Of a DNA stretch of 32,000 nucleotides, positions 4,224-32,000 are shown one piece after another. Source of the DNA: Caldimicrobium thiodismutans. GTDB taxonomy: Bacteria; Desulfobacterota; Thermodesulfobacteria; Thermodesulfobacteriales; Thermodesulfobacteriaceae. Under the pieces are notes generated by a model. That model was not told the DNA's origin, made no database searches, and saw only the letters and a program-made list of their open reading frames with translations. A program made the position numbers and the translations under genes. Each line of letters opens with the position of its first letter. Position 1 is the stretch's first letter. The stretch is from contig NZ_AP014945.1 in NCBI RefSeq assembly GCF_001548275.1, positions 1,440,001 through 1,472,000 of the forward strand, given 5' to 3'.

Positions 4224-5630
4224 TTAGAACTGGGTCTGGATGTAGAGATACCAGTCAGTAATGGAGTCTTCGTATTTAGTGGCAGGAGTGGTTCCAGATC
4301 TCTTTAAGAAGGCTTTGGCAGCGCCATCATACTGGACATTGTCAAAGCCAAGGGAGACTCTTGCAGCCTGGCCCTTGATGTAGTAATTGAGGGCAACACC
4401 CCATCTGGAGATCTCAAGATCTTTCTTGTGCACAACCGAAGTATCGGTCTCATAAGCATACTCGCCATCAGCCTTGGTTTTTTCATATCTGAAGGCAAGG
4501 GCTGGCTTTCCAAAACCAACCATCTGGTCAAAAAGAAGCTGTCCCTGAACATACCAGATCTCTGTATCTCCTTTCTTGGGACGCGCATCTGCAATCTCTC
4601 CATCTTCAATTATATATTTATAATATCCGTGGGTTTCATCAAGGGAGATATAACCCACCTGGAGATTGGGAACAAGGTTTCCAAACTTCTTTTCAAAGGT
4701 TGCATCAATGGTCCAGCCAGTTCTGTCAAGGGTCTTGTTATCTAAATCCGCAAGGGGTGGTGTATGTTTTTCCCTGTGATAGCCAAGGCCTATAACAAAG
4801 ATATCTTTGGCACCAAGGGTTGTATCAGCGGATTTTGCGGTAATGGTTGCTGCAGAATCAGGCTTAAAACCAAGCATTAGAGGCTGAAACTCAACTCTTG
4901 CATTCCACTCAAAATTCTTCTTATCATTGAGTTTCTTACCAGTTTGGATGGATGAATCTGTCCACCCCGCCCAGTATGGTATATTCACCCAGCTCCATGT
5001 TACATTACCATCTGGCAAATAATTCAATCTTCTCTCCGTTCTCACCAACTCAGTTCCCACCCAAATCTTATTTGCAGTGGATCTATCCTCATTGAATATA
5101 CCGATTCTGTAATTGAGGATACCTCCTGCAAGGTCTCCATGGAACATAAGCCCAAAATCAGTCCTATCAAGACCTAAACGAGCTCTACCTAAAATTCCCT
5201 GAGGATCAAAAAAGCTATCACTGGGAACAAGCAGGGCATAACCAGAGACAATCTGGTCCCTGGTAAAGGGCTTCCTGATCTTTCCCATAAGAACCTGAAA
5301 TTCCTTGGCAAAGGCAAAATTAACCCCCGCTTCACCAATCTGATCAGTTGTCCTTTCCTGATCAAACTCTCCATAGAACTGAACAAGCTTATTCACCTGC
5401 CCTGTAAAATAAATCTTGGCTTGACCAACTCTAAATTCATTCCGACTCCAGCCACCAGAAGTTGTTGAATTTGAGCGCTTGTCATAATTATTATACCAGA
5501 TCTTCATGTTCAGACCGAAATTAGCCCAGGTCTCATCACTGACCTTGATCTGAGCAGCATTAGCTTCCACCACATAACCTAAAGCCAAAACTCCTGCCAA
5601 ACCTAAAACCTTCCACCTTGCTACCTTCAT
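4224..5630 (-). CDS. Outer-membrane beta-barrel porin-like protein
   Basis: The signal peptide is MKVARWKVLGLAGVLALGYVVEANA. Amphipathic beta-strand patterns alternate, and the protein ends in an aromatic residue (YLYIQTQF), as OMP beta-barrels do. Confidence 0.75.
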   Translation of the reverse strand: MKVARWKVLGLAGVLALGYVVEANAAQIKVSDETWANFGLNMKIWYNNYDKRSNSTTSGGWSRNEFRVGQAKIYFTGQVNKLVQFYGEFDQERTTDQIGEAGVNFAFAKEFQVLMGKIRKPFTRDQIVSGYALLVPSDSFFDPQGILGRARLGLDRTDFGLMFHGDLAGGILNYRIGIFNEDRSTANKIWVGTELVRTERRLNYLPDGNVTWSWVNIPYWAGWTDSSIQTGKKLNDKKNFEWNARVEFQPLMLGFKPDSAATITAKSADTTLGAKDIFVIGLGYHREKHTPPLADLDNKTLDRTGWTIDATFEKKFGNLVPNLQVGYISLDETHGYYKYIIEDGEIADARPKKGDTEIWYVQGQLLFDQMVGFGKPALAFRYEKTKADGEYAYETDTSVVHKKDLEISRWGVALNYYIKGQAARVSLGFDNVQYDGAAKAFLKRSGTTPATKYEDSITDWYLYIQTQF

Positions 5631-5673
5631 AACCCACCTCCTTTAAGTTTTTTTCTTTTTTAACTTAGGGGTA

Positions 5674-5702
5674 TATATAACAAACTCTTTTAAATTTGTC
5701 AA
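5674..5702 (-). promoter_or_regulatory. Putative porin promoter (-35 TTGACA, 17 nt, -10 TATATA)
   Basis: The minus strand has TTGACA at 5702-5697 and TATATA at 5679-5674, about 45 nt upstream of the ATG at 5630. Confidence 0.45.
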
Positions 5703-5910
5703 GGGGAAATTTTTAAAAATTTTTTTCAAATTTTTCAAAAAGTAACTCCTGTAGCAGGATTTCAAGCAAATTTACAGATAATATTAACTTTAAATATTTT
5801 TATTAAATTAGTCAATGTTTAAAATTGCCTCTCATAATTTATAAATCCAAAATATTTTGCAAAACCCTTTTTTTTCTCTTATTTTTGTAAATTCTTCCTC
5901 TTTTTCTCCC

Positions 5911-6014
5911 CTATAGGCTTCATGGATTCACATTCTTATAATAAAAAGGAGGGGTGGAAAAAGGTAAAAAGGTTGGGAGGCAGATTTGAGGCTTAAAAGA
6001 CATAGGCACATATA
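5911..6014 (+). mobile_element. Short (~100 bp), diverged copy of the MITE-like element (copy 0), little more than the two termini
   Basis: The 5' part TATAGGCTTCATGGATTCA...GGGGTGGAAAAAGGTAAAAAGG aligns with TGCATAAGTTCATATCCTTACA...GGGTGGTAAAAGGTAAAAG of copy 1. The 3' part GAGGCTTAAAAGACATAGGCACATATA matches GAGTCTCAAAAGATATGGACGCATACA at 20 of 27 positions. Confidence 0.55.
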
Positions 6015-6016
6015 TT

Positions 6017-6200
6017 TGCATAAGTTCATATCCTTACAAGAAAAAGGGTGGTAAAAGGTAAAAGTAAAAGTAGGGGAAGTTCCTTGCGTGTCTGCCCTGT
6101 GTAGGGGTTTAAAATTTTAAACCCTTGTAGGGGTTCAAGATTTTGAACCCCTACATTGATGTAAAATCCTTTCGAGTCTCAAAAGATATGGACGCATACA
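6017..6200 (+). mobile_element. MITE-like element copy 1 (184 bp) with a REP-like double-hairpin interior
   Basis: Termini are TGCATAAGTTCATATCCTTACAAG... and ...GAGTCTCAAAAGATATGGACGCATACA. These form imperfect inverted repeats (14 of 19 outer positions) and are shared with the copies at 12529, 13412, 25313 and 31273. Confidence 0.75.
6104..6154. repeat. Two adjacent GTAGGGG-footed palindromic hairpins (REP/BIME-like) inside copy 1
   Basis: GGGGTTTAAAATTTTAAACCC spans 6104-6124. GTAGGGGTTCAAGATTTTGAACCCCTAC spans 6127-6154 with a 12-bp perfect stem. Confidence 0.8.
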
Positions 6201-6241
6201 TATATCTGGTTTTACTTTAAAATGGGAGTAAAATAATAAAA

Positions 6242-7153
6242 ATGAGGCTTTTTCAGATATTTGAAACCTTAAGAAAGTATCTTTCAGGGAAGGAAAGTGC
6301 TCTTGAGCTTACACTTATAACCCTTCTTGCAAGAGGCCATCTTCTTATTGAGGATCTTCCAGGGGTTGGTAAGACAACCCTTGCCCTATCCTTAGCTAAG
6401 ATTCTTGGGCTTTCCTTTTCTCGCATACAGGGAACAAGTGATCTCCTTCCTTCGGATATAACCGGGGCCTCAATTTACAATAAAAAACTTGAGAGTTTTG
6501 AGTTTCATCCCGGGCCAATTTTTGCCCATATTGTGCTTGTGGATGAGATTAATCGTATGAGCCCTAAGACTCAAAGTGCCCTTCTTGAACCTATGGAGGA
6601 GGGGCAGGTGACAGTGGATGGAGTTTCCTATCCCCTGCCCAGGCCTTTCTTTCTTATAGCCACTCAGAATCCCATAGAATATTATGGAACCTTTCCCCTT
6701 CCTGAAGCCCAGCTTGACCGCTTTTTAATGAAGATTTCCATAGGCTATCCCCCAAGAGATCTTGAAAGGGAAATTCTTAAAAGGGGAAGTCTCAAAGAGG
6801 AACTTTCTGAGATTCCCTCTCTTTTCTCACCAGAGGAAATTTTAAGGCTTCAGGAGGAGGTAAAAGAGGTCTATGTTTCAGAGAAGGTGCTTGATTATGT
6901 GCTTGATATAGTTTCTGAAACAAGAAAAAGCCCCTTTTTAAGATATGGTCTTTCCACAAGGGGAGCTCTCCTTCTTCTTGAGGCTTCAAAGGCAAGGGCC
7001 TATCTCTATGAGAGGGACTATGTTCTTCCTGAGGATATAAAGGCCCTTTCTTCCTTTGTGCTCCCCCACAGGCTTGGATTTAAGGAAGAATATGAGGGTG
7101 AAAAGGACCTTTTAATAATAAAAATCCTTGAAGAGATAAAGATTCCTCTTTGA
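6242..7153 (+). CDS. moxR: MoxR-like AAA+ ATPase
   Basis: Walker A is EDLPGVGKTTLA and Walker B is VLVDEINRMSPKTQSALLEPMEE. The ATQNP motif is present. Genomic context is DUF58 plus transglutaminase. Confidence 0.9.
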   Translation: MRLFQIFETLRKYLSGKESALELTLITLLARGHLLIEDLPGVGKTTLALSLAKILGLSFSRIQGTSDLLPSDITGASIYNKKLESFEFHPGPIFAHIVLVDEINRMSPKTQSALLEPMEEGQVTVDGVSYPLPRPFFLIATQNPIEYYGTFPLPEAQLDRFLMKISIGYPPRDLEREILKRGSLKEELSEIPSLFSPEEILRLQEEVKEVYVSEKVLDYVLDIVSETRKSPFLRYGLSTRGALLLLEASKARAYLYERDYVLPEDIKALSSFVLPHRLGFKEEYEGEKDLLIIKILEEIKIPL

Positions 7154-11376: not shown

Positions 11377-12022
11377 CCTTTTGATAATCCTCTTGTCCAA
11401 AGATTGCTGAGCCTGCAACCAGGATATCTGCACCAGCTTGCAGAACAGAAAGAGCTGTCTTTGAATTTATTCCACCGTCAACCTCAATCAGGGTAGGAAG
11501 CCCTCTTTTAATTAGGATGTTTTTTAATCTTTCAATTTTTGGTAGGCACTGGGGGATAAATTTTTGACCACCAAAGCCGGGATTAACAGTCATAATAAGC
11601 ACAAAGTCAAGGAGATCAAGGACATAATCAAGGACCTCAAGAGGGGTATGGGGATTTAGGGAGACCCCGGCAAGCTTTTCTTGTTCCTTGATTTGGGTAA
11701 TAGCACGGTGAAGATGGGGGGTAGCCTCTGCATGTATGCAGATAAGATCTGCTCCAGCTTCGGCAAAGTCTTTAATGTATCTTTCGGGATGAATTATCAT
11801 CAGATGCACATCAAAGGGAAGAGATGTATGGGGTCTAAGAGCAGAGATTACAAGGGGGCCAAAGGTAAGATTAGGGACAAAAAGGCCGTCCATAATATCA
11901 AGATGGAGAAGATGAGCGCCTGCTTTTTCAACGCTGTTGACCTCTTCTCCCAGGCAAGAAAAGTCTGCAGATAGTATTGATGGGGCAATAAGGGGTCTAT
12001 CAGAAGGAAGACTAATGGGCAT
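11348..12022 (-). CDS. rpe: Ribulose-phosphate 3-epimerase
   Basis: Motifs are [41 protein letters not shown] and EVDGGIN. Confidence 0.92.
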
Positions 12023-12446
12023 CGGGATAGTCCTTCTTTATAGGAAAGGGAATAATTTTTTCCTCTTCTTTTTTGCGGGGTTTAGCCCTTGGTTGAACTG
12101 GCTTTTCAAGGGGTTTTTCAGGGGCTTTTTCAGGGCCAGAGACACCTCCTTCACCCAGAAAAGGCAAAAAGGACTGATACTGATTTAAAAGCTCTGCAGG
12201 AATGTGGGTAGTATACCAGAGGATCTGACTTCTTTGAATAGTAATGTAGGGAAGACCAAGAAGCGCCGGGAAAAGCCCTTTTTCCTGTGAAATCATAAGG
12301 GCAGGCCACTCCATTTCAAAAAAGTCCCTCTTTTCAAGGACAAACTTGAGGTTTTCGTAAAGGGGATTATAACAGACCAGCCCCAAGTAAAGCCCGGTTG
12401 GAAGCTGAATGAGGACAGGATTTTTAGCAACAGGCTGATTTTGCAT
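12012..12446 (-). CDS. Hypothetical protein with a Pro/Lys/Glu-rich C-terminal tail, overlapping the rpe start by 11 nt
   Basis: The track ORF extends to 12512. The ATG at 12446 (MQNQPVAK...) has GGAGGT 9 nt upstream, so I prefer it. I recognise no family. Confidence 0.6.
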
Positions 12447-12528
12447 AAATTTTAAACCTCCCTGCCTGTGCATGCAGACAGGCCAATTTCTAATATAATA
12501 CCTGAAAAACATTGAAAAATCAATATCC

Positions 12529-12792
12529 TGTATGCGTCCATATCTTTTGAGACTCTATATGATTTTTTCTACCTCGGTTGTAGGAAAGTGAACCTGTATT
12601 TTGTAGGGGCAAACCTATGTGTTTGCCTCCCTTATGGAAAATCTATGTGTTTGCCTGTTATGGGATCCTTTAAAGTATTGGGCAGACACATAAAGATTGG
12701 GCAGTCACTATAGGATTTGCCCCTCTTTTAACCTCTCATTTCTCACCTCTTATCACCCCTTTCTTTTTCTTGCAAGGATATGAACCTATGCA
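12529..12792 (-). mobile_element. MITE-like element copy 2 (264 bp), canonical orientation on the minus strand
   Basis: On the plus strand it reads TGTATGCGTCCATATCTTTTGAGACT...TTATCACCCCTTTCTTTTTCTTGCAAGGATATGAACCTATGCA. The interior has the hairpin GGCAAACCTATGTGTTTGCC and internal direct repeats (CTATGTGTTTGCCT twice, ATTGGGCAG(A/T)CAC twice). I found no flanking duplication. Confidence 0.7.
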
Positions 12793-12816
12793 AAAATTGT
12801 TGTAAATCCTTTGATA

Positions 12817-12838
12817 GGGGCAAATAATTATTTGCCCC
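12817..12838. repeat. Perfect 22-nt palindrome GGGGCAAATAATTATTTGCCCC (REP-like module outside a bounded element)
   Basis: Read directly. It is followed by the terminus-like fragment TGCATGCGTTGG...TCTTTTAAGCT at 12839-12873. Confidence 0.8.
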
Positions 12839-12954
12839 TGCATGCGTTGGTTTGCATTTAGTTCTTTTAAGCTTTTTATATTTTAATAAGTTTTATAGAA
12901 TTATTATGTATGCAGAATGAGATTTAATTCAGGAATTATAACAATAGAAGAGCT

Positions 12955-13200
12955 TTATAAAAATTTGAGTAGAGCTAAAAGGACACCTAAGAAGGCAAAG
13001 CCAGCTGTTATCAACCATTGCATAAAATTCATACGCTTTTCAAGGGATTCAAATCTTGCATTCATCTCTCTTATCAAACTCTCAAATCTCTTTCCTTCAA
13101 GCTCCCTTAAAGCCTTTAATTCCTCTTCCACACGAATAATTCTCTCAAGAAGAGTTAACTCCTTCAGTCGCTCTTCATTTAACCTCAGTTTTTTCTCCAT
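12955..13200 (-). CDS. Tail-anchored coiled-coil protein (paralog P3), C-terminal ORF with only one MNARFE unit
   Basis: The product is MEKKLRLNEERLKELTLLERIIRVEEELKALRELEGKRFESLIREMNARFESLEKRMNFMQWLITAGFAFLGVLLALLKFL. Its DNA is near-identical to P1. The ATG has no SD. It is probably the downstream half of a frameshifted gene. Confidence 0.65.
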   Translation of the reverse strand: MEKKLRLNEERLKELTLLERIIRVEEELKALRELEGKRFESLIREMNARFESLEKRMNFMQWLITAGFAFLGVLLALLKFL

Positions 13201-13334
13201 AGGTTAGATAATTTTTTCTGAATTATCTCCATTATCTCAGAACTAATTTTTCCCCTGATTTCATACCCTAAGGTCCCGCTAAAAATGTCTCTTACAGCTT
13301 CTGTTAATTCCTTGGGACTAAAATTAGTATTCAT
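13185..13334 (-). CDS. 49-codon ORF homologous to the N-terminus of P1 (upstream half of the split P3 gene)
   Basis: Too short for the ORF track. My translation is MNTNFSPKELTEAVRDIFSGTLGYEIRGKISSEIMEIIQKKLSNLWRKN*, which aligns with P1 residues about 4 to 52 (NLSSEELNEAIKGVFRSSFGEEFKESISAEIWAKLEEKF...). A strong RBS GAGGGAGG lies 5 nt upstream. Confidence 0.6.
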   Translation of the reverse strand: MNTNFSPKELTEAVRDIFSGTLGYEIRGKISSEIMEIIQKKLSNLWRKN

Positions 13335-13411: not shown

Positions 13412-13618
13412 TTTATGCGTAAACTTCTTGCATTGAACCAAAATTAATCATTTCTTGAATAAAATTTTTCTAATTCCCATATCAAAGTAGAGGCAAAACA
13501 ATGTGAATGCCAATTATATATTACATAGAGCAGACACGCAAAGGGCTTCCTCTACTTTCCCCTCTCACCTTTCACCTTCTTTACCCCCATGTTTCCTCTG
13601 AGGATATGAACCTATGCA
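13412..13618 (-). mobile_element. MITE-like element copy 3 (about 207 bp, diverged), canonical orientation on the minus strand
   Basis: On the plus strand TTATGCGTAAACTTCTT matches GTATGCGTCCATATCTT at 13 of 17 positions. The interior GCAGACACGCAAAGGGCTTCCTCTACTTT matches the reverse complement of copy 1 (GCAGACACGCAAGGAACTTCCCCTACTTT). The right end reads ...CTCACCTTTCACCTTCTTTACCCCC...GAGGATATGAACCTATGCA. Confidence 0.55.
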
Positions 13619-18042: not shown

Positions 18043-18175
18043 CATAATATTTTGTTGAAATAAATCAAATTTCATAGGTCCACATTTTTACAAGATTTTA
18101 TTCCTCTATCTAAACCTAAAATTTATAATACTTTCAAAAGGCAAATTGCGACCTAGAGTAGCGGTTAGTTAGAAA

Positions 18176-18195
18176 GGGTTAAATATTTTGAACCC
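18176..18195. repeat. Orphan copy of the hairpin module GGGTTAAATATTTTGAACCC
   Basis: It is identical at 18 of 20 positions to GGGTTCAAGATTTTGAACCC inside element copy 1 (6131-6150). It is not flanked by recognisable element termini. Confidence 0.6.
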
Positions 18196-18307
18196 ATGCT
18201 ATAAATCAGTTAAAAAATTCCTGTTTCAGAAGAGATTGGGACATGGGGCAAACATTCAGGTCTGCCCAAATAGGCAGATTTAAGTCCCAAAAGAAATGGA
18301 TCCCAAA

Positions 18308-24100: not shown

Positions 24101-25249
24101 TTATTGGATAATTTCCCAGTCTCCCTTTTTCACTACCACCATTTCAAAGGAAGAGGCATCTAATCCGCAATGATCCTTTGGACTGATATTAAAAACTCCA
24201 CTTATACCTGGCCAATTTTTGATTTTATGTTCAATATAATCTCTAATTTTGGCAGAATCGGGGCCTACTTTCTTCATAGCCTCAACAACCATCATAAAGG
24301 CATCATAAGCATGGCCAGCAAAGGTTCCAGGCTCAGTTTTATATTTGGCTTCATAGGCGCGAACAAAACCTTCTAAGATCTTCTTTTGGGGATGTTTTTC
24401 AGGTAGCTTATCCCAGACTACGATCCTTCCAAGGGGAGCAATAACTCCTTCGGCTGCAGATCCTGCAAGCTGAATATTTTTCTTGCTTCCCCAGCCATGA
24501 GATTGAAAAAGGGGAATATTTAGTTTTAGGGCTTGCCAGTTTTTCACAACAATAACCTGGGTTGGTCCAACAGACCAGTTAATAATGGCCTGAGCTCCAG
24601 CTTTGTGAGCTTTGAGAAGTTGAACAGTCATATCTGAATCTTCAGGTTTATATCTTTCATCAGCTACTACCTGAATTCCAAATTTGGGTGCAAGCTCAAG
24701 AAGGGCTTTCCTTCCTTGATCTCCAAAACTATTGGTTATGGTAAGAATACCCACCTTTTGAATTCCCTTTTTTTGCATATAACGATAAATAGCTTCAACG
24801 GCACTTCTATCATACTGAGCGGTTTTAAAGACCCAGTATCTCTCATTAACAGGCTCGGTTATACCGGTTCCTGCAGCTAAGGAAATGAGAGGAATTTTGG
24901 CCTGTGAAATAATTGGAATAACTGCCATACTTTCTCCGGTTGTAGAGGGGCCAAGGATTGCAACTACTTTGTCCCGTTCAATAAGTTTTTTTGCAGAAAG
25001 CACTGCCTGGCTCTCTCCACTTTTGGAATCCTCTATAATCACTTCAAGGGGTCTTCCATTGATACCGCCTGCTTTGTTTACCTCCTCAGCCAGCAAGAGA
25101 AGGGTATTTTTTTCCTGTTCTCCAATAAAAGAAGCAGGACCTGTAACACTTAGAATAGCTCCGATTTTAATAGGCTCTTTAGAATAAGAAAAACCTATCA
25201 CACTAAAAAGAAAGGCTAAAATTAACAAAAGAACCCTCAGTCCAGCCAT
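24101..25249 (-). CDS. livK: Leu/Ile/Val-family ABC transporter substrate-binding protein
   Basis: It has a signal peptide. IKIGAILSVTGPASFIGE marks the type I periplasmic binding fold. It is the first gene of the liv operon. Confidence 0.82.
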   Translation of the reverse strand: MAGLRVLLLILAFLFSVIGFSYSKEPIKIGAILSVTGPASFIGEQEKNTLLLLAEEVNKAGGINGRPLEVIIEDSKSGESQAVLSAKKLIERDKVVAILGPSTTGESMAVIPIISQAKIPLISLAAGTGITEPVNERYWVFKTAQYDRSAVEAIYRYMQKKGIQKVGILTITNSFGDQGRKALLELAPKFGIQVVADERYKPEDSDMTVQLLKAHKAGAQAIINWSVGPTQVIVVKNWQALKLNIPLFQSHGWGSKKNIQLAGSAAEGVIAPLGRIVVWDKLPEKHPQKKILEGFVRAYEAKYKTEPGTFAGHAYDAFMMVVEAMKKVGPDSAKIRDYIEHKIKNWPGISGVFNISPKDHCGLDASSFEMVVVKKGDWEIIQ

Positions 25250-25312: not shown

Positions 25313-25564
25313 TGTGTGCGTCCAGGTCTTTTGAGACTTAAATAGTAGGGGTTTAAAATTTTATACCCCTTGAATTTTTTTTGTGGGTCTGTTGTAGTAC
25401 AGACATTCTTGTCTGTGTTTCTTTCACAGATTGGAGTGTATTTTACTTTCACAGGCAAGATTGCCTGTGTAACTTTTACAGACTTGTAAAGCCTCCCTTG
25501 TTTAGATATCTAATTCCTCTTTTACCACCCTTCCTTTTTTCTTGTAAGGATCTGAACTTATGCA
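25313..25564 (-). mobile_element. MITE-like element copy A (252 bp) with a perfect 5-bp target duplication TCTCT
   Basis: The TIRs are TGTGTGCGTCCAGGTCTTT... and ...AAGGATCTGAACTTATGCA. TCTCT occurs at 25308-25312 and 25565-25569. The interior holds four hairpins and no credible ORF. It differs from the reverse complement of 31273-31524 by 8 substitutions. Confidence 0.85.
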
Positions 25565-31230: not shown

Positions 31231-31272
31231 AGGCTCTCCTCTTTTTTTTGCCAAAAAGGCAGATACACCCCC

Positions 31273-31524
31273 TGTATAAGCTCAGATCCTTACAAGAAAA
31301 AAGGAAGGGTGATAAAAGGGGAATTAGATATCTAAACAAGGGAGGCTTTACAAGTCTATGAAAGTAACACAGGCAATCTTGCCTGTGAAAGTAAAATACA
31401 CTCCAATCTGTGAAAGAAACACAGACAAGAATGTCTGTACTACAACAGACCCACAAAAAAAATTCAAGGGGTATAAAATTTTAAACCCCTACTATTTAAG
31501 TCTCAAAAGACCTGGACGCATACA
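31273..31524 (+). mobile_element. MITE-like element copy B (252 bp) with a perfect 5-bp target duplication CCCCC
   Basis: It reads TGTATAAGCTCAGATCCTTACAAG...AAGTCTCAAAAGACCTGGACGCATACA. CCCCC occurs at 31268-31272 and 31525-31529. It is the inverted partner of copy A. Confidence 0.85.
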
Positions 31525-31564: not shown

Positions 31565-32000
31565 ATGGGTATTTTAGCTTTGGATTTAATTAAGACATTG
31601 GAAGAGCTTGATCCTCCTGTCAGAAAAGCCATTATTAAAGTTCTGGAAAGAATTGAGCAGATAATTGAGGATACTGTTAAGCGAGAGGATTTTTTTGAGT
31701 TAAAAAATATTGTAAAAGAACTTGCTATAGCCCAGAAGAGAACTGAAGAGAGAGTTGAGGAACTTGCTATAGCCCAGAAGAGAACTGAGGAGAGAGTTGA
31801 GGAACTTGCTATAGCCCAGAAGAGAACCGAAGAGAGAGTTGAGGAACTTGCTATAGCCCAGAAGAGCCTTGCAGAAGAGGTAAAGAGGCTTGCTGAGGAG
31901 CAGATAAAACTTGCTGAGGCCCAGAAGAGAACTGAAGAGAGAGTTGAGGAACTTGCTATAGCCCAGAAGAGAACTGAGGAGAGAGTTGAAGAACTTGCTT
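31565..32000 (+). CDS. Coiled-coil repeat protein, N-terminal part (DUF3782-like; the gene runs off the window end)
   Basis: Absent from the track because it is edge-truncated. My translation is [81 protein letters not shown]... The N-terminus plus [11 protein letters not shown] repeats resemble the DUF3782 / PD-(D/E)XK-associated coiled-coil proteins common in thermophiles. The C-terminal domain is outside the window, so the family call is tentative. Confidence 0.7.
31718..32000 (+). repeat. Near-perfect 42-bp in-frame tandem repeats (14-aa unit [14 protein letters not shown])
   Basis: The unit is gaacttgctatagcccagaagagaactgaagagagagttgag. Three consecutive copies differ by one substitution each. 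A diverged stretch follows, then at least two more copies continue past the window end. Confidence 0.9.

Follow-up and report, generated by a model that had tools for sequence, protein, structure and literature searches.

Two tandem repeats upstream of moxR

The window analysed here is the whole 32,000-nt stretch of Caldimicrobium thiodismutans contig NZ_AP014945.1 from position 1,440,001 to 1,472,000; positions are counted from its first letter unless they are given as genome positions. In it, the moxR gene (ATG at 6242) is preceded by two repeats lying head to tail, in the order decayed copy 0, 2 nt (6015-6016), intact copy 1, TATAT and the position of a -35 hexamer. We read these tandem repeats as miniature transposable elements bounded by inverted repeats (MITEs), of an ISKpn28-like insertion sequence (IS) of the IS481 family, which docks 5 nt upstream of -35 hexamers, and we put the probability of this reading at roughly 85%. 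The features of the locus are the following.

5919-6014, + strand: copy 0, a decayed short-form MITE of 96 bp, old
6011-6015, no strand: TATAT, left target duplication of copy 1, with a one-T offset (6016) and overlapping the end of copy 0
6017-6200, + strand: copy 1, a 184-bp MITE of the type-II interior lineage, young
6017-6047, + strand: left terminus of copy 1, TGCATAAGTTCATATCCTTACAAGAAAAAGG, an imperfect inverted repeat with the right end
6048-6069, + strand: heptamer tract of copy 1, GGTRAAA / GGTGAGA type, of a repeat number that varies within the family
6070-6098, + strand: type-II interior module of copy 1, TAGGGGAAGTTCCTTGCGTGTCTGCCC
6100-6124, + strand: hairpin H1a, TGTAGGGGTTTAAAATTTTAAACCC, with a GTAGGGG foot (inverted-repeat search and fold)
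6127-6155, + strand: hairpin H1b, GTAGGGGTTCAAGATTTTGAACCCCTACA, with a GTAGGGG foot (fold); H1a and H1b form a doublet of ~58 nt
6175-6200, + strand: right terminus of copy 1, AGTCTCAAAAGATATGGACGCATACA, a 26-mer with 156 genome copies
6201-6205, no strand: TATAT, right target duplication of copy 1, the 5-nt spacer from the element to the -35 position
6206-6234, + strand: putative moxR promoter, with -35 CTGGTT (6206-6211), a 17-nt spacer and -10 TAAAAT (6229-6234)

A first-pass annotation, made from the letters of the window alone, had described a short and a long copy head to tail, 2 bp apart, upstream of moxR, and this arrangement is confirmed. Its limits for copy 1 are right, and copy 0, which it had started at 5911, begins at 5919 in our alignment. 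Copy 0 is made up of a left terminus, a heptamer-like tract, a GGCAGATTT module and a right terminus. Its end-to-end alignment with the 85-bp short form at genome position 1125675 scores 40, against a mean of -2.7 (standard deviation 4, maximum 11) for 500 shuffles, and at its two ends it shares 72-73% identity with copy 1 (repeat families D7 and D10). Copy 1 carries both termini with 0 mismatches to the family consensus. Its TAGGGGAAGTTCCTTGCGTGTCTGCCC module has 29 matches in the genome (at most 3 mismatches), 21 of them within copies that have both ends, and 7 of the remaining 8 lie within 165 nt of an element end. The two adjacent GTAGGGG palindromes that had been noticed in copy 1 are borne out by an inverted-repeat search, which finds them as neighbouring hairpins (88% complementary), and by the predicted minimum-energy DNA fold, in which both form (z = -3.17). 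A consensus scan called no terminator inside the copies.

TATAT is present on both sides of copy 1, with the one-T offset on the left that had been pointed out, and fits the 5-bp target duplication of the family described below. The earlier caution that this duplication is ambiguous stands: since the left TATAT reaches into the end of copy 0, copy 1 may either have re-used the spacer 5-mer of copy 0 or have cut at a distance of 1-2 nt from where copy 0 ends. The putative moxR promoter was placed from the register of the family, that is, from the flank profile of 121 right ends given below.

A family of about 150 MITEs

The C. thiodismutans genome is complete in a single contig (1,814,952 bp, 38.3% G+C). 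It holds 116 left ends (31-mer, at most 7 mismatches) and 156 right ends (26-mer, at most 6 mismatches), where our own binomial estimate of the chance expectation is below 0.2 for each end type. Pairing of the ends gives 94 elements of 68-481 bp and leaves 22 left and 64 right ends unpaired; the family comprises about 150 MITEs. The ends, TGCATAAGTTCATATC on the left and TGTATGCGTCCATATC on the right (reverse complement), form an imperfect inverted repeat of the type TGyrTAAGTTCA (left) and TGTATGsGTCCA (right, as reverse complement), so that the elements read TG...CA or TG(C/T)...ACA. Target duplications of 5-6 bp flank 14 of the 94 paired copies, compared with 1.8 expected, and the right copy of the duplication always abuts the -35 hexamer, as in CAGCTC/TTGACA, AGAGA/TTGACA and CAACC/TTGACA.

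These properties are those of MITEs. Besides the duplications, and the single-copy targets found at the empty sites of relatives, the family has its ends in common with an IS of a relative of the same genus (G004), and the same type of left end precedes a transposase open reading frame (ORF) in a second relative (G042). The elements are short and numerous, and their coding content is limited to fragments of a transposase gene. No source of transposase is found in the same genome, which membership in a MITE family does not require.

Right ends lie at a fixed distance from -35 hexamers

The flank profile of 121 right ends consists of 4-5 variable bases followed by cTTGACA, with T at position 7 in 108 of the 121, and by a -10 signal, TAnAAT, at +28 to +34 from the right end. 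TTGACA (at most 1 mismatch) lies at offset 4-6 from 75 of the 121 right ends, against a random-position background of 2.8%, and the register is sharp, with offset 5 in 64 copies and offset 6 in 9. Just 4 of 85 left ends show the same signal. Of the 121 right ends, 111 are accompanied by an ORF start on the same strand (within 200 nt) or by a tRNA gene (within 300 nt), as against 45.5% in a crude random control. A tRNA gene follows at no more than 300 nt in the case of 17 right ends; the genome has 46 such genes in total.

Insertion would take place by a 5-bp staggered cut just upstream of the -35 hexamer of a sigma-70-type promoter, made with a transposase that would act in trans and cut at the TG...CA ends, and the right end would always come to lie on the promoter-proximal side. 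The promoter may be sensed either by direct reading of TTGAC or through contact with bound sigma factor or RNA polymerase. Docking at this position spares genes, so that a high copy number is tolerated, and at over 100 genes the element takes the place of the native upstream part of the promoter.

Probable origin from an IS481-type insertion sequence

Some copies retain pieces of a transposase. They include ...TDNGSEF...PKGNGYVERFNRILEE...YNGERPISGL..., ...VKTDNGSEFLGEFDRYLKEEGIRHYFNYPRFPKGNGYVERFN... at genome position 1367731 and PKGNGYVERFNRILEES...YNGERPISGLQQVSPIKYL at 1279124. In the 342-bp class of copies, FPKGNGYVERFN codons are fused to the C-terminal codons ...QKIWTHT, which make the right terminus; by the frame of the remnants, the right terminus codes in the parent IS for the C-terminus of the transposase. 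A stitched remnant of 140 aa scores above the Pfam cutoffs for rve_3 (E 1e-10) and rve_2, and reaches 23.6 bits against Pfam rve, under the cutoff of 32.6.

Relatives carry longer forms of the gene. In G004 it is split into ORFs of 104 and 210 aa, in an element with ends TGCATAAGTTCA... and ...ATATGGACTTATACA, and in G042, of the same family and another genus, a 355-aa ORF starts just inside a TGGATAAGTTCA end; the right end of the G042 element coincides with the contig end, and only the left one is readable. The best NCBIfam model for the 355-aa protein is IS481 (NF033577; 181.7 bits, E 2e-53, positions 1-282 of 284), followed by IS3 with 94.7 bits. In a tblastn search it matched, with 46-48% identity across 99% of its length, plasmid genes whose annotation reads 'IS481 family transposase' or 'IS481-like element ISKpn28 family transposase'; its identity to a gene on a plasmid of Nitrosophilus labii is 61%. 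The complete C. thiodismutans genome gave no rve-domain match and no intact transposase, only three IS481-like fragments, beyond which the 355-aa protein has no match in it. As to the DDE transposase that the first-pass annotation had proposed to look for, the shell of the elements is probably that of an IS481-type DDE element; a partner with these terminal inverted repeats (TIRs) is absent from this genome. Since the genome is without a transposase of this superfamily, the MITE population in it is stranded, and we infer that it was mobilised in trans by a transposase that has since been lost.

The plasmid transposase ORFs have no stop codon inside the element (NZ_CP025462.1, L114:1640-1659; NZ_AP022827.1, L115:1675-1695). 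They end in ...ACA-NNN-NNT-TGA, where the stop is the TGA of the target's TTGAnn -35 hexamer, brought into frame by the 5-nt spacing. The frame of the remnants in C. thiodismutans (...QKIWTHT, with ACA as the last codon) is compatible with the same arrangement.

The same register in relatives and in distant bacteria

The pattern of a right end, five bases and TTGAC is found at 47 of 105 right ends in this genome, at 19 of 46 in G004, 10 of 31 in G009 and 3 of 8 in G012, and at 15 of 26 in G048, which belongs to a different genus; reversed-pattern controls gave zero matches. It also occurs further away. On the Klebsiella pneumoniae plasmid NZ_CP025462.1 an IS481-family element with ends TGTGTAAGTTCAC... 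and ...GTGGACCCATACA lies between IS26 and mph(A), and its duplication CCGGA is followed by TTGAAT-N17-TACATT. The 61%-identical element of the Nitrosophilus labii plasmid NZ_AP022827.1 has the duplication AATAA and, in its right flank, TTGACT and then TAAAAT 18 nt on. An 18-nt word from the right end of the Klebsiella element was found at 81 distinct sites in genomes of other phyla, with hosts that include Nitrospirales, Peribacteria and Escherichia ruysiae; 47 of these sites have TTG at +6, and 32 have TTGACA (at most 1 mismatch).

A 2026 paper tabulates ISKpn28 insertions in which 5-bp repeats are followed by TTGACG, TTGATC, TTGCGA and TTGCCT, that is, TTG-type flanks at 4 of the 8 loci with repeats, and most of the tabulated loci are described as 'upstream of' genes (PMC13733257). 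Promoter preference is not discussed in the ISKpn28 passages of that paper, and our searches of the literature on promoter-targeted IS and MITEs and on ISKpn28 found no description of -35-directed insertion, be it for these elements or for another IS.

Judged from these flanks, docking appears to be a trait of the IS lineage. For the wider proposition, we lean a little beyond even odds toward an ISKpn28-like subgroup of IS481 that targets sigma-70-type promoters via the -35 hexamer, inserting 5 bp upstream in one orientation, with direct recognition of the -35 or recognition via sigma region 4 or RNA polymerase, and with an ORF that lacks its own stop and ends on the target's TGA. If so, the ~150 MITEs of Caldimicrobium lie upstream of a large share of its strong promoters and of about one third of its tRNA genes, and the system is a bacterial counterpart of the tethered integration of Ty3 or of the ISAjo2 kind. 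Docking at the edge of the -35, oriented and exact to the nucleotide, would be a rare case of transposition directed by a transcription signal in bacteria. Because ISKpn28-type elements on enterobacterial plasmids have the same geometry, the trait may be general. The rule that ties the right end to the -35 can serve for promoter mapping in thermophiles that have been little studied, and for dating successive insertions at the same promoter.

Probable repeated hits on the moxR promoter

The tandem at moxR is suggestive of a promoter that was hit twice. With the target set by the promoter side, a second hit would land between the resident copy and the hexamer: a new copy would enter between the resident copy and the -35 box, and the resident copy, displaced upstream, would then decay. 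Copy 0, about 27% diverged, would be the older insertion and copy 1, with its consensus termini, the younger, and we infer that they inserted in this order. Family-wide, tandem docking is seen at 4 of 98 left ends. The layout of an old right end, 2-6 nt and a new left end recurs at three other loci (at most 6 mismatches in the old end), and more loci with the same layout and more decayed old ends exist.

Weighing the promoter-docking reading

Several observations weigh against the reading of the repeats as promoter-docking MITEs of an IS481-type element. A clean duplication is present in just ~15% of the paired copies; in the remaining ones it may have been lost, or the left boundary may stem from another event. 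The type-I and type-II interiors contain DNA that the transposase gene does not account for. The IS481 profile score of 181.7 is below the curated cutoff of NCBI, 224, and, with no intact transposase in this genome, mobility is not tied to a resident enzyme. At moxR itself the -35 hexamer CTGGTT is degenerate, too poor for a consensus scanner to call a promoter directly 3' of copy 1, and the -10 placed at 6229-6234 stops 7 nt ahead of the ATG, so that either the mRNA is leaderless or the true promoter lies elsewhere.

Near-random insertion followed by selection could also be imagined, copies having survived where they were harmless or where they helped a promoter by means of an A-tract resembling an UP element. 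IS elements and MITEs in general show a bias toward survival between genes, and the right end, by its sequence, would put CAAAAGATAT at about -60 to -52, near the usual position of an UP element. Selection alone accounts neither for a register of a single nucleotide (64 copies at offset 5 and 9 at offset 6) nor for the strict orientation. The same register recurs in distant lineages of differing genome composition. It is present too in the ISKpn28 copies of Klebsiella recombinants made in the laboratory, and at least one of these arose while a strain was being constructed (PMC13733257). We regard selection alone as very improbable, if marginally the likeliest of the alternatives.

A portable promoter, in which the right end of the element would supply an outward promoter or a -35 to the genes downstream, is suggested by the conserved block ...GCATACA-N5-cTTGACA, which reads as a single unit, and outward promoters are common in IS and MITEs, for example in Correia elements (PMC10969869). 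Here, however, the 5-bp duplication separates the element end from the hexamer, and therefore the -35 hexamer is part of the target and not of the element. The spacer and -10 sequences are unrelated between copies, and relatives without the element retain -35 and -10 at orthologous sites. We located such empty sites by joining the flanks of elements and searching same-genus genomes with them. At one of them the uninterrupted sequence of G005 is ...TATAG-ACCCC-TTGTAT..., and its counterpart in C. thiodismutans is ...TATAG-CCCCC-[177 bp]-CCCCC-TTTTAA...; further ones are at a tRNA-Met promoter (genome 856 kb) and at a gene promoter at 55 kb. At the orthologous moxR site, the relative G010 has an element-free TTGACA-N17-TACAAT. 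We regard the portable promoter, too, as a very improbable explanation.

Mosaic interiors and the REP-like hairpins

Clustering of the interiors gave a 342-bp class of 14 copies, a 250-bp class of 11 copies, which corresponds to the 342-bp form less ~90 nt and includes copies A and B of the window (listed below), a 200-270-bp class of 10 copies including copy 2, also listed below, and further small groups together with numerous singletons. Type-I interiors have three hairpins, and type-II interiors a variable heptamer repeat and GTAGGGG-footed hairpins. From the alignment of copy 1 with its nearest relatives, the type-II backbone reads, in this order, left end, variable GGTRAGA heptamers, TAGGGGAAG..CCTTGCGTGTCTGCCC, ..AATAATGTAAA.., GGCAAACACATAGGTTTGCCCCTAC, ..GTAGTAGAAAAAATCC.. 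and right end. The two-hairpin H1 insert (~58 nt) follows GTCTGCCC in five of the aligned copies, copy 1 among them; one aligned copy has half of it and three, copy 2 among them, are without it. Compared with the 319-bp form at genome position 680927 (E680927_319), copy 1 lacks ~135 nt between ...TTGATGTAAAA and AATCC..., with the junction in an AAAA microhomology, and it is therefore an internal-deletion derivative of that form. The deletion of the 250-bp class begins exactly where H1 ends in the 342-bp class. In a class of ~205 bp, a type-II-like left context (GCCCCATGTAGGGG) is joined to a type-I right context with H1 at the junction, which points to recombination or template switching at the shared hairpin.

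The conserved inverted termini and heterogeneous interiors that had been described from the window hold for the whole family; the idea that the interior is freely exchangeable cargo does not, in view of the indels, recombinants and transposase fragments. Interior mosaicism comes from indels, changes of repeat number, recombination and differing deletions of the parent IS, and exchange of REP cargo between TIR shells gives way to ordinary MITE mosaicism.

The heptamer (GGTGAGA, GGTAAGA, GGTAAAA) occurs beside the left terminus genome-wide, in the window at 6048-6069 and 12730-12760. Its number of units varies widely, with 7 in E680927 and more in E1479639, and the latter copy, at genome position 1479639, has long GAGGAGT and GAGAGGG runs; the tract is a minisatellite within a MITE. 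The type-I hairpins CACAGGCAATCTTGCCTGTG and CACAGACAAGAATGTCTGTG are also found at genome positions 224008-233207, up to 9 kb from any recognisable end, where they may belong to decayed or rearranged copies or be the source of interior DNA.

From the GTAGGGG feet it had been proposed that the family is a chimera of a TIR shell and cargo of repetitive extragenic palindromic (REP) or REPIN type, moved by a REP-associated tyrosine transposase (RAYT) of the IS200/IS605-like Y1 kind. The hairpins do have a GTAG foot and are arranged as a doublet, the 58-nt doublet is present or absent among type-II copies in the manner of an insertion, and H1 occurs in at least three different interior contexts; these contexts are, however, accounted for by deletion endpoints and by crossovers at the hairpin. 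Y1 transposases occur in 3 of 13 same-genus genomes, and nothing connects them to the H1 hairpins. A search of the complete C. thiodismutans genome with PF01797 (Y1_Tnp), which gave matches in control genomes, found none, and so no RAYT/Y1 gene. Nor is there an independent population of hairpins: 36 of the 48 matches to H1 (GGGGTTTAAAATTTTAAACCCC, at most 3 mismatches) lie within paired elements and most others no more than 200 nt away from an unpaired end, the picture is similar for the remaining interior hairpins, with a few matches kilobases from recognised ends, and H1 was not found in G004, G009, G012 and G048, the four relatives with related elements. GTAGGGG itself occurs 220 times in the genome, against 106 expected from whole-genome mononucleotide composition; 91 of these are within 400 nt of an element end, and the 129 elsewhere are near the chance level. 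A search for over-represented 10-mers found no other palindromic family outside the elements. Among what would speak against its proposal, the first-pass annotation had named beforehand GTAGGGG hairpins no more frequent than chance in a lineage without a Y1 transposase, and for this genome essentially both apply. We consider the REP-cargo chimera wrong, the least probable of the three alternatives, and the promoter docking of this lineage the part worth following up.

Other candidates were rejected more directly. A second REP-like family of CAGGCAGG palindromes was dropped when the 10-mer search gave just element-derived and coding-bias words; targeting of TTGAC or CTTG by IS200/IS605- or IS91-type elements was rejected in view of the duplications, of the rve remnants and of the lack of Y1/Y2 signals; and small-RNA and CRISPR-repeat readings were abandoned, an Rfam search of 5600-6300 having given nothing at gathering score (CRISPR-DR66 25 bits against a cutoff of 45, and weak miRNA models).

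Comparison with known systems

The closest relatives by sequence are the ISKpn28-like members of IS481, with which the elements share a rve-type DDE transposase of ~350 aa, encoded by a single ORF entering the right inverted repeat, TG...CA ends and a 5-bp duplication; target duplications of the IS481 family range from 4 to 15 bp. The differences are that here ~150 non-coding miniatures are present and no intact IS, that the relative's transposase scores under the curated NCBIfam cutoff for IS481, as given above, and that oriented docking at the -35 is not mentioned in the ISKpn28 passages of the paper cited (PMC13733257).

The closest functional precedent is the ISAjo2 subgroup of the IS1202 family. 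Its members have TGT...ACA ends and a 5-bp duplication, insert in a fixed orientation exactly 5 bp from the XerC side of pdif or dif sites, and have been proposed to do so by contact of the transposase with a bound host protein (Harmer, Pong and Hall 2023, PMC10132070). What the two have in common is the geometry, with a fixed orientation, a distance of 5 bp to a specific protein-binding site and a duplication of 5 bp, and the resemblance is functional only: the target here is a -35 hexamer and not a dif/XerC site, and the elements are not members of the IS1202 family, because the transposases of relatives, of ~355 aa and with IS481 as the best profile, differ from the TnsB-like IS1202-family ones of 441-457 aa (PMC10132070).

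Like REP and REPIN sequences associated with RAYTs, the hairpins of the family are short, intergenic, GC-stemmed palindromes with a GTAG foot, sometimes paired. Unlike them, they are confined to TIR-bounded interiors or the close neighbourhood of these, are missing from the relatives searched and have no RAYT/Y1 gene in their genome.

Ty3, a long terminal repeat (LTR) retrotransposon of yeast, targets the start sites of RNA polymerase III, to which it is tethered by TFIIIB. Positioning at the nucleotide level at a site of the transcription machinery is common to both, and tRNA genes are frequent targets here too (17 right ends); Ty3 is a eukaryotic LTR retroelement, and tethering by sigma factor or RNA polymerase is, for the elements described here, a hypothesis. 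Correia elements duplicate a TA target. With these elements of Neisseria (CREE or NEMIS), and with other bacterial MITEs associated with promoters, the family shares a high copy number, TIRs, the lack of coding content, a location often just 5' of genes and a division into subtypes by internal deletions (PMC10969869). Correia elements bring promoters of their own (PMC10969869), whereas the family described here docks beside a pre-existing promoter, its register and orientation being fixed and its duplication 5 bp long.

Other copies and minor observations in the window

Five further copies lie in the window.

12529-12792, - strand: copy 2, a 264-bp type-II MITE with right flank GGATA TTGATT
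13470-13618, - strand: copy 3, partly decayed, with its left end at 13588-13618 (6 mismatches)
~18071-18306, + strand: decayed copy enclosing the hairpin 18176-18195
25313-25564, - strand: copy A, a type-I MITE of 252 bp flanked by a duplication of its own, AGAGA
31273-31524, + strand: copy B, a type-I MITE of 252 bp flanked by a duplication of its own, CCCCC

The right end of copy 2 is oriented toward the gene at 12012-12512. The sequence at 12606-12632, listed earlier as a recurrence of the hairpin motifs, falls within this copy, and the palindrome at 12817-12838 is a module found in the interiors of other copies as well. Past the left end of copy 2, at 12798-12872, there are two extra element pieces, an interior fragment of another subfamily (GGGGCAAATAATTATTTGCCCC..AAAGGATTTACAA) and a decayed right-end-like sequence (TGCATGCGT...TCTTTTAAGC), which suggests nested or tandem older copies at the promoter of copy 2 too. 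Copy 3 has a degraded right end, and its low boundary is approximate. The hairpin at 18176-18195, taken at first for an orphan, is enclosed by two degenerate ends, the left one at ~18071 and the right one at ~18272-18306.

Copy A is docked at AGAGA/TTGACA of the gene at 24101-25249. A composite transposon with copies A and B as its inverted arms (252 nt, 97%) was considered and rejected because each has its own duplication and its own promoter; copy B is an independent insertion, not a composite-transposon arm. A minus-strand operon starts at ~31254, only ~18 nt from the left end of copy B (31254-31273), and because of this short distance its promoter must be inside copy B or a hybrid with it. 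The left terminus has an outward-facing TTGTAA exactly 17 nt from its tip.

Upstream of the divergent gene at 4224-5630, the segment 5633-5743 gave short BLAST matches of 72-97% identity to many related genomes; it could be either low-complexity A/T sequence or a regulatory motif that has been conserved. Finally, two regions that contain ORFs are connected by inverted repeats (632-1200 with 12953-13218; 710-1132 and 31677-31999), one of 170 nt (86% complementary) and one of 113 nt (82% complementary). Both regions have tandem repeats that keep the reading frame, their period being 54/33 nt or 42 nt, and they resemble internally repetitive paralogous genes that have no relation to the MITEs.

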